Origin: Eledone cirrhosa | Lineage: Eukaryota | Reading direction: 5' to 3' | Length of the DNA: 64,000 nucleotides | Assembly (NCBI GenBank): GCA_964016885.1 | Contig: CAXHJY010000159.1 | Coordinates: 1 to 64,000 of the forward strand | In this document: positions 36,285-54,146 of the stretch, piece after piece | Layout: the number at the start of each line of letters is the position of its first letter | How positions within the stretch are numbered: the stretch's first letter is position 1 | The notes under the pieces: generated by a model | Told to the model about the DNA's origin: nothing | The model's database searches: none | The model's input: the letters and a program-made list of their open reading frames with translations, nothing else | Translations under genes and position numbers: made by a program

Positions 36285-36575
36285 TAATATTACTTCAAAA
36301 TATTAATAAATATAGACATTCATATAATCAAATATATTTTATTATACATATTTCAGAGGTACTGAGCTATTTCATCAGTACGTCCTCATTAGATAAAATA
36401 AATTGATGTCTGACTGGAATTGAACCATCAGCACAGTTGAGGTATGTCAAACATCAATTTATTTTATCTGATGAGGACGTACTGATGAAATAGCTCAGTA
36501 CCACTGAAATATGTATAATAAAATATATTTGATCACATGAATGTCTATATTTATTAATATTTTGAAGTAATATTA
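36285..36575. repeat. 130-bp inverted repeat of an HHR-bearing pLTR end (36285-36414 vs 36446-36575)
   Basis: Near-identical reverse-complement arms; the left copy has the core mutated to CTAATGA. Confidence 0.88.
36460..36525 (+). ncRNA. Type I hammerhead ribozyme, intact core
   Basis: TATTTTAT-CTGATGA-ggac-GTACTGA..TCAGTAC-cact-GAAA-TATGTA-TA-ATAAAATA. Confidence 0.85.
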
Positions 36576-36967
36576 TATATATATATATATATATGCTGCG
36601 TGGGTTTTTTCTCTGTGTGTATGTGTGTTCGAGTTTGTATAATGTTATCTGAATGTTGGTTATGTGTGTGCGTGTGTAACTGTTATATTGTGTTATATGC
36701 ATGTCTCGTCATTGTTTTGCCCGTGTAACGTTTATTTCTTAAACGATGCGTGTATATAGCAAAGTTTTTGGTGCGCTAATCATGTGTAAATGAGTGCAAG
36801 GAATATGTGCTAATGCGTAGATTATTCATATGGGTGTCTGTATGCTTTTATTTGTAGTGTATGTGCGTGTGTGCATGTGTGTCTGTGTGCGTGGGGGGGG
36901 GGGGGGGGGGCGTAAGCGTGCCCTGTGTTTTTGTATTTATATATACGTGCATTATGTATTTATGTAT

Positions 36968-37156
36968 GACGGTGGATTGGCAGTATCGGTAGAGGGTCGG
37001 ACGCCATGCTTTCCAGCATAGTTACGTCCCTTTACGATCTGAGTTCAAATCCCGCCGAGGTTGACTTTGCCTTTCATCCTTACGGGGTCGATAAAATAAA
37101 GTACCAGTAATGCACTGGGTAATTGCTGGCCTTGTGCCTAAAGTAGAAACAATTAT
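36968..37156 (+). mobile_element. SINE family A, full copy with (TATG)n tail
   Basis: Nearly identical to 9431-9617. Confidence 0.9.
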
Positions 37157-37569
37157 GTATGTATGTATGTATGTGTGTATTTGGTTTTGGGGGAGATATT
37201 CATTACCAAAACTACATCACAAAGACTAGGATTCATTTTATAGCCAAGAAATGATTGAGACATGATTAGTTGATGACTTCATACAATCATTCCTCTAGCG
37301 TTTGAGAGGCTGGTGATGCTACACCCGCAAACATCATTGACTGGAGGCAAAAGAAACCATTCTGATGACTGGTATGATTTACTCACCAACACATTTCAAC
37401 AACTAGACTACATCTGCACAATTTCTTCGCTTTGTTTTTTATAGTGCTACTACAACAACCTCTTCTCCTTAGCTAACTATCCTAAGCTAGCTATCAGCAA
37501 GCCCTCTCCTACATTTTCTCTTTCCGTCGCCCCTATCAAGTTTCATCTCTGAATCGTTTTCCCCTCCTT

Positions 37570-37975
37570 ATAAATCATTATTGATGATTTTGATGAAAAT
37601 ACCATGATTCGTAAAATGTTTAGTGAAATAAAACCTAACAACCTAACGACTGAAGACAGAATAAGACACACCAGGAGACAAAAGACAGATACAAACAGTG
37701 CAGTATACAACACCCCCACCCCACCGCCATACATACGACAAACATACACATGCCAAAGACAGACAGACACACACACACACACACACACACACACACACAC
37801 ACACACACACACACACACACACACACACACACACACACAAATGCATCGCAGACAAGAAAAAAACCATAGAGTAAACGGTTTAATATCAATAAAGAGACAC
37901 AGAGAAGAACAAATGTCATTGAGGAGGTCACGGAATGTGATACGAAAGAGTTTTGACGAACTAACCAATAACTAA
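37570..37975 (+). mobile_element. PLE 3' end/pLTR with decayed HHR (37915-37957)
   Basis: GTCA-TTGAGGA-g-GTCAC..GTGAT-ac-GAAA-GAGTTT-TGAC; same type as the HHR at 48608-48650. Confidence 0.65.
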
Positions 37976-38254
37976 TAATAAAGCTGGAGGGAAATTTGAA
38001 TAGTGCGTGAGCTTTTCTTGACAAAATTGGCAAACTGACCATCCCCAAATATAACAATATGAAATAAAACCGCTCAAAAGTTAATAAAATATATTTGAAG
38101 GTAGGGCAATGAAAAAATGTGGATTTGCGTTGTATGTACACGGTTTTAGAAGTAGAAACGATTCATCGTTTTCGGTAAATACTCATCCATCCTATCTCTG
38201 CATTAGTAAAAAAGGCAAACTATCAATAAAACTACAATTTTTAAAGGCCCCACT

Positions 38255-38557
38255 CGGTTTTGCACCTAGAAAGTTTCCTTCCGAGGCACAAGGCTGGGCA
38301 AGGTTTGTTTTGTGGAAGACCAGTAGTCACCCGTGCATGCCAGTCTCCACGCCACCGATGTTGTCAAAGGGAAAGGCAATGACCGATACAGCTTGGCACC
38401 AGTGACGTCGCAACTCTTTTCAACATGTGAGTAAACTGGAGCAACGTGAAATAAAGTATCTTGCTCAAAGATACAACGCATCACCCGGTCCGAGAATCGA
38501 ATTCACAACCTCTCAATTGCAAGCCCAATGCTCTAACCACTAAGTCATGCGCCTTCA
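38255..38557 (-). mobile_element. CORE-type SINE family B
   Basis: Reverse complement of the 23436 family. Confidence 0.85.
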
Positions 38558-38699
38558 TAATAAAACTACAATATCATAAATAAACAACAATTAAGTTAGT
38601 GTTAACATATTTAATTAAAAGGCTAACTAGAAATATAGTTATCAATCTCAACACCATCCAACGTTAATCTTATACATTTATTCAACAATTCTGTCATCT

Positions 38700-52150: not shown

Positions 52151-52612
52151 ATAACATACATACATACATACATACATAACATACATACATACATACATAC
52201 ATACATACATACATACATAACATACAAACATACATAACATACATACATACATATACATACATACATACATAACATACATACATAACATACATACATACAT
52301 ACATACATACATAACATACATACATACATACATAACATACATACATACATAACATACATACATAACATACATACATACATACATACATACATACATAACA
52401 TAAATACATACATACATACATACATACATACATACATAACATACATAACATACATACATACATACATACATACATAACATACATACATACATAACATACA
52501 TACATACATACATAACATACATACATACATACATAACATACATACATACATAACATACATACATACATACATACATAACATACATAACATACATACATAC
52601 ATAACATACATA

Positions 52613-52830
52613 CATGGCGGCTGCCAACTCGTTTTCGAGTACGGCCACTACTCTATATGTAGGAGAACCCCTACCGATGCGCTGAACGAGTGTGAATTTT
52701 TAGTCCAGCCAGCGACTTGAAAACTCTGTTAGGTACAAACGCTACACTTGTGACAATTATTGACACATAGTGCTGACCAAGATGATATTTACCAAAAAGA
52801 AGAACAAGTCAACATCATTGGATACCATCA
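52613..52830 (-). mobile_element. Second, truncated and internally deleted copy of the RTE derivative
   Basis: Matches 51512-51870 with an internal deletion. Confidence 0.8.
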
Positions 52831-52866
52831 TGTACATATACATACATATATACATACATACATACA

Positions 52867-53426
52867 TCTCATGGTCGGGTCGTTGGCGACTAAACTGGCA
52901 ACCCCACCAAGGTTTCTTGGTAAGGAGGATGACTTTGGACATCCTGCAGGACTAAAAACAAAACCTGTCAAAGGGCAAAGGAGTTCTTAAGAGTCAATGG
53001 CCATCCAAAATCACTGGGAGAGATGACACCTTAGCCTTTGTCAGGGCAGAATTCTAGGAGAAGGAAAACTCTGATTTAACACCTGCAACCCTGATGGTAT
53101 CCAATGATGTTGACTTGTTCTTCTTTTTGGTAAATATCATCTTGGTTAAGAGAGTGGGACTGGCTTTGTGCAGTGCCTTTGCTCACTATAAAAGCGTCAC
53201 GGCACAGGCATTGCTTTATATCTGGAGATCTCTCTGCACTTGTCGTCACATGGTACCATGGGCCCAGCACTATGTGTCAATATTTGTCACAGGTGTAGTG
53301 TTTGTACCAGAGTTTTAAAGTAGCTGGCTGGACTAAAAAGTCACACTCGTTCAGTGCATCGGTAGGGGTTCTCCTACATGGATATAAAGTAGTGGCCGTA
53401 CTCGAAAACGAGTTGGCAGCCACCAT
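52867..53426 (+). mobile_element. Third copy of the RTE derivative, inverted
   Basis: Reverse complement of 51512-52100. Confidence 0.85.
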
Positions 53427-53805
53427 ATGTACATATATACATACATACATTTACGTATGTATATAGCTATGCATTTATACATTTGTATATATACATCCAT
53501 TTAAATTTAAGTGTGTAAGGTTATATATATATATCCTTACACACTTAAATTTAAATGCATGTATCTATACACATGTATAAATGCATAGCTAAATGTATGT
53601 ATGTATATATGTATGTATATTTATATATATATATATATATATATATATATATATATATATATATATATATATATATATATATATATATGTATGTATGTAT
53701 GTATGTAGATTTTTATATATATATATATATATATGTATGTATGTTTGTAGATTTATATATATATATATATATATATATATATATATATATATATATATAT
53801 ATATT

Positions 53806-53939
53806 ATTATTATTATTATGTAATAAACAACATAAGGCAATTATTCCATTTACCAGTGGTTTCTTAAAAGCAAAAGGTTAAGAAACCACTGGTAAATGGA
53901 ATAATTGCCTTATGTTGTTTATTACATAATAATAATAAT
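53806..53939. repeat. Perfect 62-bp-arm palindrome of HHR 3' halves
   Basis: 53806-53867 vs 53878-53939; GAAA-CCACTGG-TA. A related island lies at 18236-18402. Confidence 0.85.
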
Positions 53940-54085
53940 TAAGCTCTGTTGCTTACATAGAGCACTCTTTTTTCCTGGACTTTTCCGATGGAATTACTTC
54001 ATATATATATATATAGGCAAAAGGAAAAACTTGAACCGTTAAGATCTCCTTCCTGGATATGTCAATATTTATAAAACAAATTTTG

Positions 54086-54146
54086 TATTTTATCTGATGA
54101 GGGCGTACCAAAGTTTTGATACCCTTGAAATATATATAATAGAATG
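54086..54146 (+). ncRNA. Type I hammerhead ribozyme, intact core (same family as 42960-43020)
   Basis: TATTTTAT-CTGATGA-gggc-GTACCAAA-gt-TTTGATAC-cctt-GAAA-TATATA-TA-ATAGAATG. Confidence 0.83.

Follow-up and report, generated by a model that had tools for sequence, protein, structure and literature searches.

This 64,000-nt stretch of the Eledone cirrhosa contig CAXHJY010000159.1 (the window) raises the question of whether its hammerhead motifs are ribozymes selected where they stand, or remnants of another kind of element. A type I hammerhead descriptor applied to both strands of the whole window returned exactly four matches, and a strict version with an 8-bp stem I returned four in the window and none in each of 40 shuffles (block-wise dinucleotide, region 8001-64000). 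The four motifs exceed chance, and their positions, strands and parts agree with the original prediction in a sequence check and with the descriptor. The hammerheads and their associated arms are the following.

36460-36525, plus strand: hammerhead copy 1, with A opposite A at pair 3 of stem II, in the right arm of a fold-back
36335-36400, minus strand: fifth hammerhead copy, inverted and carrying A in place of G5, in the left arm of the same fold-back
36285-36414 and 36446-36575: arms of the copy 1 fold-back, 96% complementary
42960-43020, minus strand: hammerhead copy 2, within a fold-back
about 43030-43062: short inverted arm of the copy 2 fold-back, terminating at (TA)n
47315-47384, minus strand: hammerhead copy 3, with G-C at 10.1-11.1 and a GC-rich palindrome
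47590-47715, plus strand: copy 3 flank (3' side) repeated in inverted orientation, containing a tail hairpin at 47672-47699
54016-54192, plus strand: copy 4 unit, comprising natural upstream sequence, the hammerhead at 54086-54146 and 3' flank

All four hammerheads lie next to (TA)n, as originally described. The right arm of the copy 1 fold-back terminates at (TA)n near 36575, and the direct arm of copy 3 at TA near 47272. The copy 4 unit has (TA)n on either side, with no tail or inverted arm seen; loose ends at 43040-43041 in contigs from public sequencing runs match its upstream sequence.

Closer inspection altered the picture of four intact hammerheads with an invariant stem I and interchangeable stems II. 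The core-mutated copy at 36335-36400, beside copy 1, brings the count to five, and "intact" was an overstatement, given the A-A mismatch in copy 1 and a C-A in the distal stem of copy 4. Invariance applies to the 5' strand of stem I only. The stem II that had been quoted is present, and sits beyond three proximal pairs and a C-C or C-U mismatch in 5/5 copies. The core (CUGANGA, GAAA, NUH) together with stems I and II is found in four of the five copies, the 10.1-11.1 pair is G-U in four and G-C in one, and stem III begins with U15.2-A16.2 in all five. The four copies amount to three subfamilies. An Rfam/Infernal search, suggested as a check, gave no hammerhead match at the gathering score in the whole window, and no hammerhead among the 118 matches at E ≤ 10 in 36000-54500. 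Ten Hydra-clade loci were likewise without an Rfam match, and the non-match therefore reflects model coverage.

The original prediction had overlooked the fold-back structure and the tail hairpin. Three of the four hammerhead units are fold-backs with a one-sided tail, showing the inverted 5'-truncated copy and one-sided tail that are a trait of EN+ PLE insertions; copy 4 has neither. The tail motif is a bulged hairpin, RCUC-stem-loop-UH-GAG-YRCU, about 60 nt beyond the cleavage site. The variant in the family of copies 1-4 has an A-U closing pair followed by GCU, and lies 59-62 nt beyond the cleavage site. Hairpins in the window are listed below, with ranks among the 14 matches of model R2.

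36254-36281, minus strand: tail hairpin (hairpin 1) of the copy 1 fold-back, left arm only; rank 6, E 0.5
42886-42909, minus strand: copy 2 tail hairpin, 59 nt beyond the cleavage site; rank 2, E 0.057
47672-47699, plus strand: tail hairpin in the inverted arm of copy 3; rank 5, E 0.49
53806-53969, plus strand: separate small fold-back (53806-53939), one arm of which bears a canonical Hydra-type tail hairpin; rank 1, E 6.5e-6
47884-48046, minus strand: separate small fold-back (47913-48046), one arm of which bears a tail hairpin; absent from the 14 matches

The copy 2 tail stops at (TA)n near 42868. Eight candidate hairpins were examined for a second arm, and six lie in fold-backs; for the candidates at 62180 and 32560-32590 the second arm was not convincing. 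All six fold-backs carry the hairpin in one arm only, and the aligned part of the opposite arm stops 0-11 nt before the hairpin, at (TA)n or a TA dinucleotide run (6/6). A window hairpin descriptor, composed after five of its six matches were known, gave 6 matches compared with a mean of 0.145 in 200 shuffles, and an independent model scored the three hairpins of the family weakly (E 0.057-0.5). An origin of the inverted repeats from a MITE or DNA transposon was rejected, as the arms are asymmetric, with the tail on one, and their ends adjoin the hammerhead.

Judged by sequence, copies 1-4 are short 5'-truncated PLE 3' ends inserted in (TA)n, and the motifs probably form the 3'-terminal module of a high-copy PLE family related to the Hydra clade. 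Within this module, the hammerhead is followed by a spacer of about 50 nt, a UA-rich stretch, hairpin 1, a spacer, a UA-rich stretch and hairpin 2; in tandem master copies the ORF start comes next. Hairpin 2 of the family of copies 1-4 was glimpsed in one loose-end consensus only. Craig et al. (2021, PMC8557442) describe (TA)n insertion and a sense hammerhead near the 3' end for Hydra-clade PLEs, and inverted 5'-truncated copies with a one-sided tail as a PLE signature. The family of copies 1-4 shares with Hydra-clade PLEs these four features, as well as non-canonical 10.1-11.1 pairs and the hairpin motif, but differs in U15.2-A16.2, the AUA triplet, an 8-bp AU-rich stem I, the C-Y mismatch at stem II position 4, the A-U-closed hairpin and the lack of a linked ORF. 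The departures from the sampled Hydra elements in stem III opening, triplet and hairpin variant speak against the proposed identity.

Other known systems resemble the window copies in part. The metazoan PLE min-HHRs of Cervera and de la Pena (2014, PMC4209133) are type I, with a palindromic 15.2-16.2 segment, a dimer model and low activity in vitro; they occur as many variable families per genome, mostly as single copies, with some pairs 100-700 bp apart on opposite strands. The window copies have the same palindromic, monomer-unstable stem III, but have no unpaired base between positions 9 and 10.1, do not show the conserved pair G10.1-C11.1 (G-U in 4/5, with A-U common in the sequencing runs), and possess a longer stem I. 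Short-stem-III hammerheads of Lunse et al. (2017) are covered in a review (PMC6765202). Non-LTR retrozymes (PMC7229834; bioRxiv 10.64898/2026.07.22.740005), which are head-to-tail tandem units by definition, have in common with the copies a type I hammerhead, a non-coding unit, high copy number and PLE origin, but the copies in the window are solitary or inverted.

Within the 64-kb window, no RT-GIY-YIG ORF is linked upstream of copies 1-4, and the upstream sequences of copies 3 and 4 contain no ORF. The PLE remnants nearby are the following.

43931-44951, plus strand: Hydra-clade PLE remnant ORF, with the RT C-terminal part, a CxCx5C linker and the start of GIY-YIG
46218-46266, plus strand: decayed hammerhead-like motif with U4 read as C, in the arm 46104-46310; read by eye and missed by the descriptor
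43233-43439: mirror arm of 46104-46310, continuing into a tail hairpin at about 43195-43229 (minus strand)

The remnant at 43931-44951 matches the profile of A2 (E 5.6e-41), with CxCx5C found in 44325-44951; in the Hydra clade this linker is a protein signature alongside DKT and the lack of CCHH. As a candidate partner of copies 1-4 it was set aside, because its 3' end is different, with its own C15.2-G16.2 motif and tail; it belongs to another family, which can at most be a sister of theirs. A second candidate, the RT/GIY-YIG fold-back at 48868-51091, was also rejected, its 3' end bearing a different hammerhead (48602-48656); a search with this element gave 2158 relatives and no link to copies 1-4. 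Viral contigs contained no relative of the Hydra alignment.

The family is very abundant. Over 42850-43110, there were 8998 and 8036 matching contigs from public runs, all from one sample. Summed depth in X1 was 2.1-3.8 M across the 3' flank and 0.11-0.14 M across the tail, and it changed stepwise at about 42922-42930 and 42868. Pair-keeping variants include G10.1 to A opposite U (51% of depth) and G-U to G-C in the tail stem (15%).

The copies could instead derive from a short non-autonomous element, a PLE-mobilised SINE-like or retrozyme-like RNA with the same 3' module and no ORF of its own, which borrows the PLE protein. We consider this unlikely. The very high abundance, the ORF-less upstream sequences of copies 3 and 4, the absence of their hammerhead and hairpin variants from 89 ORF-bearing loci and the reported derivation of animal retrozymes from PLE pLTRs (bioRxiv 10.64898/2026.07.22.740005) are in its favor, but the copies are solitary or inverted with differing 5' ends, no go-back joint (the tandem signature) was present among the 15 joints listed of 21 in the public-run contigs, and severe 5' truncation alone accounts for the missing ORF. 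The hairpin mechanism proposed below would be unchanged if such an element were the source.

To characterize the hairpin among relatives of the proposed PLE family, 89 ORF-bearing Hydra-clade PLE loci from public assemblies were examined. A sense hammerhead was present in 74 loci and the hairpin motif on the sense strand in 67, with the hairpin 34-62 nt downstream in 56 of 92 sense hammerheads. Tandem hairpin pairs with compensatory pairing, 58-82 nt apart, occurred in 42 loci (37 distinct pairs, same spacing), with hairpin 2 located 7-39 nt before the ATG in 34/36 cases. CTC precedes GAGYRCT in 147/186 sense and 22/130 antisense instances. Watson-Crick pairing at inner positions 1, 2 and 3 (90, 64 and 58 of 106) exceeded the null (54, 30 and 26) only when the bulge was 2 nt. 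Inner pair 1 of hairpin 1 is paired in 33/33 (19 U-A, 14 C-G), and the hairpin inner length ranges from 9 to 26 nt. Insertion ends fell 1-9 nt 5' of a hairpin in 12 of 18 scorable cases (5 at hairpin 1, 7 at hairpin 2), from 12 different sequence clusters (binomial p ≤ 1e-6), and the remaining six fell elsewhere. The locus hammerheads have C15.2-G16.2 in 67/67 and U-U at 10.1-11.1 in 30/67, none of 104 locus hairpin instances has the A-U-closed variant of copies 1-4, and a BLAST search of their family against the loci gave one 31-nt match (E 0.003). No published description of the motif was found in a literature search. It is visible by eye at the 3' end of three of the six new Hydra consensi of PMC8557442, and the available parts of that paper do not mention a hairpin in the tail.

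The mechanism that we propose starts from what is visible in the DNA itself, namely the module, the fold-backs and their one-sided tail, and insertion ends that stop shortly 5' of a hairpin. The most likely role of each hairpin is to place the RT of the element at the UA-rich stretch immediately 5' of that hairpin, where initiation would be internal; both the tail on one side and the asymmetry of the fold-backs would follow. The RT-GIY-YIG protein would bind each bulged hairpin and nick (TA)n DNA, and would begin reverse transcription within the template, in the UA-rich stretch that lies a few bases to the 5' side of the hairpin. Starting at hairpin 1 would give an end without a tail, and starting at hairpin 2 would copy hairpin 1 as the tail. 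Both starts, one per target strand, followed by early termination and joining by microhomology or snap-back, would leave one arm of the resulting fold-back, and not the other, with a tail.

A partial parallel is provided by Poseidon of Anolis (Frangieh et al. 2024, PMC11167929), where two internal RT starts downstream of the hammerhead bound the tail in vitro, the target is AT-rich, a stem-loop lies at the start, the protein is a predicted dimer, and the hammerhead is protein-assisted and dispensable for insertion in vitro. The Poseidon starts lie inside the ORF, at an AC-rich stem-loop not homologous to the cut DNA, whereas the starts proposed here fall before the ORF, in UA-rich stretches that could pair with (TA)n, each preceding a duplicated motif conserved across many families. 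Nothing on the hairpin motif was found in the available part of the supplementary text of PMC11167929. We give roughly even odds to the full reading, in which the duplicated covarying hairpin upstream of the Hydra-type ORF is an undescribed RT-positioning signal whose two copies each determine one of two internal start sites, one for each subunit of a dimeric protein and each target strand, explaining the one-sided tail and asymmetric fold-backs, and copies 1-4 represent an extremely abundant, diverged lineage that has a hammerhead subtype of its own (AUA site, stem II C-Y mismatch) and kept the signal through compensatory change.

It is also conceivable, though improbable, that the hairpins act as DNA, either as cruciform or single-strand signals for the GIY-YIG endonuclease or as a duplicated TATA-plus-initiator promoter, and that the ends reflect DNA cutting or transcript starts instead of RT placement on RNA. 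The tail of D. virilis Penelope is required for endonuclease recognition of plasmid DNA (cited in PMC11167929), a rotifer pLTR has a TATA box and an initiator-like sequence 20 bp away (PMC3846280), and a TA-rich stretch here precedes CACT by about 25-30 nt; covariation of Watson-Crick pairs is strand-symmetric, with G-U and A-C cells (6 versus 4) uninformative on RNA or DNA folding. However, a promoter needs no covarying stem and the inner length is variable, new insertions enter bare, hairpin-free (TA)n, so recognition of target DNA cannot fix the element end, and the ends of Poseidon in vitro matched RT start sites on RNA (PMC11167929).

As for the hammerheads themselves, the covariation of paired positions put forward originally was borne out. 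Five pairs change on both sides (5 copies, 17 pairs), and 98.8% of cells are paired compared with 93.6% when shuffled, a lenient control because the structure was derived from the same sequences, two of which (copies 2 and 4) share 95% identity. Assignment to PLE-type hammerheads with a palindromic stem III was likewise supported, and this stem cannot form in the monomer (pair probability 0.00 in all 16 folds). The covariation is a record of selection in master elements, where the hammerhead would be selected probably for tandem-transcript processing, as a dimer or protein-assisted. The present copies show ordinary decay and are inert passengers. They are stubs of diverged subfamilies that were dead on arrival, and the picture of four separate ribozymes, each under selection and with exchangeable stems, was not supported. 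From the predicted folds, dimers between them are unlikely. That four functional ribozymes, selected at these loci, cleave host or element transcripts as dimers is very improbable: cores are perfect in 4/5 copies, pairing is high and a copy 3 homodimer is predicted (8-bp intermolecular stem III, -10.5 kcal/mol), but copies 1, 2 and 4 are predicted to form palindrome duplexes of no more than -2.2 to -3.2 kcal/mol. Copies 2 and 3, at 4.3 kb the closest two on one strand, are incompatible in their palindromes (+1.7 kcal/mol), and copy 1 with 100 nt of flank folds as its long inverted repeat, which leaves stems I and II a probability of 0. Copies 1 and 4 carry pair-breaking changes and the fifth a core change, and with similar contigs numbering in the thousands, any one window can be expected to contain a few near-intact copies.

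PLE stubs with a hammerhead are commonplace; the new observation is the tail hairpin. It bears on how PLEs choose an internal RT start, and on the origin of their one-sided tail and inverted copies. One PLE has so far been reconstituted in vitro (PMC11167929), and a duplicated, covarying motif of 25-35 nt with insertion ends 1-9 nt before either copy offers that existing assay a cis-element open to mutation, relocation and duplication. In invertebrate genomes rich in repeats, where Rfam gives no match, the motif also allows ORF-less stubs to be assigned to this lineage.

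The four type I hammerheads of the original prediction (copies 1-4) were all found at their claimed places. A type I descriptor applied to both strands of the window returned exactly these four and no others, and its strict form gave 4 matches in the window vs 0 in each of 40 shuffles. A mismatch search added a fifth copy, 36335-36400 (-), with G5 changed to A. Stem II had been described as staying paired; the longer stem is present, but in 5/5 copies it follows three pairs and a C-C or C-U mismatch. Across the five aligned copies, 98.8% of the 85 cells are paired, and the proposed covariation is borne out in that 5/17 pairs change on both sides, by a measure that is lenient because the structure was derived from the same sequences and copies 2 and 4 share 95% identity. 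Rfam did not detect copies 1-4. These are genuine hammerheads of a known kind, in an AT-rich, microsatellite-rich animal genome, possibly that of a cephalopod. An old fold-back (9749-10315; 75% between arms) carries a decayed hammerhead on each arm, also with three stem II pairs followed by a C-C mismatch, and with an 8-nt A-U-rich palindrome. The subtype to which copies 1-4 belong therefore predates a single family and extends beyond it.

Cleavage as dimers had also been proposed. The design fits the dimer model for PLE hammerheads (PMC4209133; review PMC6765202), but modeling suggests that these copies are poorly placed for dimers. The pair probability of stem III was 0.00 in 16/16 monomer folds, and the self-duplex energies of the 8-nt palindromes were -2.2, -3.2, -10.5 and -3.2 kcal/mol for copies 1-4, respectively. 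The copy 3 palindrome is incompatible with those of copies 2 and 4, and copy 1 with 100 nt of flank folds as a long inverted repeat, with loss of stems I and II.

The copy 2 unit (42850-43110) was compared at 80% likeness with four of nine listed public sequencing runs. Matches comprised 8998 and 8036 contigs, both from one sample, 59 contigs in a different organism, and 29445 RAD reads. In one run (X1), summed depth, which is not copy number and in which the hairpin fits two places, was 0.11-0.14 M in the tail, 0.65-1.1 M in the 5' half of the hammerhead and 2.1-3.8 M in the 3' flank, with steps near 42922-42930 and 42868. None of the 40 variants listed touched either core segment, the stem I 5' strand or the tail's CTC and GAG anchors.

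Fold-backs were found at 3/4 hammerhead units:

36460-36525 (+), copy 1: 130-nt arms, 96% complementary
42960-43020 (-), copy 2: short inverted arm
47315-47384 (-), copy 3: inverted copy of its own 3' flank, ~250 nt upstream

All three have one arm ending at a run of TA and a second arm that extends into a tail, which matches the PLE insertion pattern of an inverted 5'-truncated copy with a one-sided tail described in PMC8557442 and PMC3846280. The sequence upstream of copy 4 (54086-54146, +) is matched by loose ends at 43040-43041 and is thus the family's own upstream sequence; the inverted arm of copy 2 is accordingly a snap-back where 12 nt are naturally complementary. Inverted repeats of 80-870 nt are also numerous elsewhere within 8679-61284 (e.g. 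12858-13103, 18679-19039, 19066-19493, 32642-33173 and 51515-53423); several are bounded by (TA)n, and some may be more PLE stubs.

PLE coding remnants in the window are:

43931-44951: PLE remnant, CxCx5C linker as in the Hydra clade
~12191-12484 and ~32142-32538: two more Hydra-like remnants
48868-51091, within 48602-51320: RT/GIY-YIG PLE in a large fold-back, Cx4Cx2C linker
48602-48656 (-): minimal hammerhead of the 48868-51091 PLE

Within the window, no link was found between copies 1-4 and either the 43931-44951 remnant or the 48868-51091 PLE. The inverted arms of the former terminate in a tail and in a hammerhead-like motif that is different and decayed. A decayed relative of the 48602-48656 hammerhead lies at 37909-37963 (+), and 69-nt pieces of the 3' UTR of the 48602-51320 PLE recur at 54601-54669. 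The window also contains a decayed, partly duplicated non-LTR retrotransposon (24165-30600, -) with exonuclease-endonuclease-phosphatase and RT domains, a voltage-gated potassium channel exon (62496-63428, -; Rfam K_chan_RES match 62724-62837), and a tRNA-like match (14573-14637) amid nested direct and inverted repeats (14397-14937), probably a tRNA-derived SINE.

All three family tails contain a bulged hairpin: RCUC, a variable stem-loop, a 2-nt U-first bulge, and GAG-YRCU. In the supplement of PMC8557442, visual inspection shows the motif at the 3' end of 3/6 new Hydra consensi; the other three stop before it or show part only. The 43931-44951 remnant had 53 homologues (373-713 aa, from 632 candidates), and an alignment of 24 of these served as query for 89 Hydra-clade loci, comprising 77 metagenome loci (from the 80 top-ranked of 393 confirmed stretches) and 12 genome loci, in 67 clusters at 85% identity. 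Twelve of the loci (L078-L089) lie in bacterial-labelled contigs, several from symbiont or marine MAGs, probably because host animal DNA contaminated these prokaryote genome collections.

With flank-only anchoring, CTC occurred upstream of GAGYRCT in 147/186 sense vs 22/130 antisense cases. Among 106 distinct sense instances, inner positions 1-4 were Watson-Crick in 90, 64, 58 and 42 (null means 54, 30, 26 and 28), a signal that depends on the 2-nt bulge. The motif was present in 67/89 loci, and in 42 of these (32 clusters) as a tandem pair; 37 distinct pairs had a spacing of 58-82 nt. For 56/92 hammerheads, hairpin 1 is found 34-62 nt beyond the cleavage site; its first inner pair is intact in 33/33 and of two types; hairpin 2 lies 7-39 nt upstream of ATG in 34/36 cases. 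A TA within 12 nt before the hairpin was seen in 63/63 with full upstream sequence, a weak count in AT-rich sequence. Alignment of 61/65 distinct hairpins (four left out for length or contig edge) gave 90.5% paired cells and 63 both-side changes vs 26 shuffled, the invariant CTC and GAG anchor columns being a product of the selection criteria. The motif ends in GAGCACTC, a near-palindrome; in the many instances reading CACTCT, its GAG could pair with the upstream CTC or with a downstream one, a hint of an alternative fold or kissing site.

A model (R2) from these 61 hairpins alone gave 14 window matches, with the family tails at ranks 2, 5 and 6 (E 0.057, 0.49 and 0.5) and the tail of another fold-back at rank 1 (E 6.5e-6). 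Its matches at ranks 3 and 4 fall in or beside other repeats: rank 3 (13839-13872) lies inside a fold-back (13464-14074) that has hammerhead-like cores (13515-13604 and 13934-14023), and rank 4 (18272-18305) belongs to a repeat related to that at 53882-53999. Ten of the loci were run against Rfam and none matched. The literature searched, mostly open-access and including PMC6962438, PMC7229834 and bioRxiv 10.64898/2026.07.22.740005, gave no account of the tandem hairpin.

Insertion ends were examined in 28 comparisons of pLTR copies within loci, 10 of which were set aside (7 contig end, 1 template end, 2 TA-rich self-matches). Of 18 scorable ends, 12 lay 1-9 nt before a hairpin (5 hairpin 1, 7 hairpin 2) and 6 elsewhere. 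The 12 came from 12 different clusters, nearly all joined to TA repeats (binomial p <= 1e-6 under generous window sizes). The hairpin was on one arm only in 6/6 window fold-backs containing it (of eight candidates, two without a convincing second arm were excluded) and in two further fold-backs at locus L080.

PMC11167929 reports that reverse transcription of a Poseidon PLE starts at two internal sites bounding the tail, in a stem-loop, and that its hammerhead is protein-assisted and dispensable for insertion in vitro. We propose that each hairpin would bind the RT-endonuclease and direct initiation to the UA-rich stretch immediately 5' of the hairpin, where the RNA could pair with (TA)n that has been nicked; the asymmetric fold-back would result if both starts were used, on opposite strands of the target.

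The family differs from the Hydra loci, in which C15.2-G16.2 is present in 67/67 distinct hammerheads, by a U-A pair and an AUA site. Its hairpin variant occurs in 0/104 Hydra-clade instances, BLAST against the loci gave a single weak 31-nt match, and its hairpin 2 is suggested by one loose-end consensus only. The family 3' end would work like a Hydra 3' end, with putative clade membership; alternatively, the family could be an ORF-less element using the same hairpin signal. The hairpin could also act at the DNA level, as an endonuclease site or TATA-initiator promoter; G-U vs A-C counts (6 vs 4) leave the strand undecided. The order of the module, its covariation and strand bias, and where the ends fall are direct observations, and the part that deserves follow-up is the duplicated hairpin coinciding with the insertion ends.
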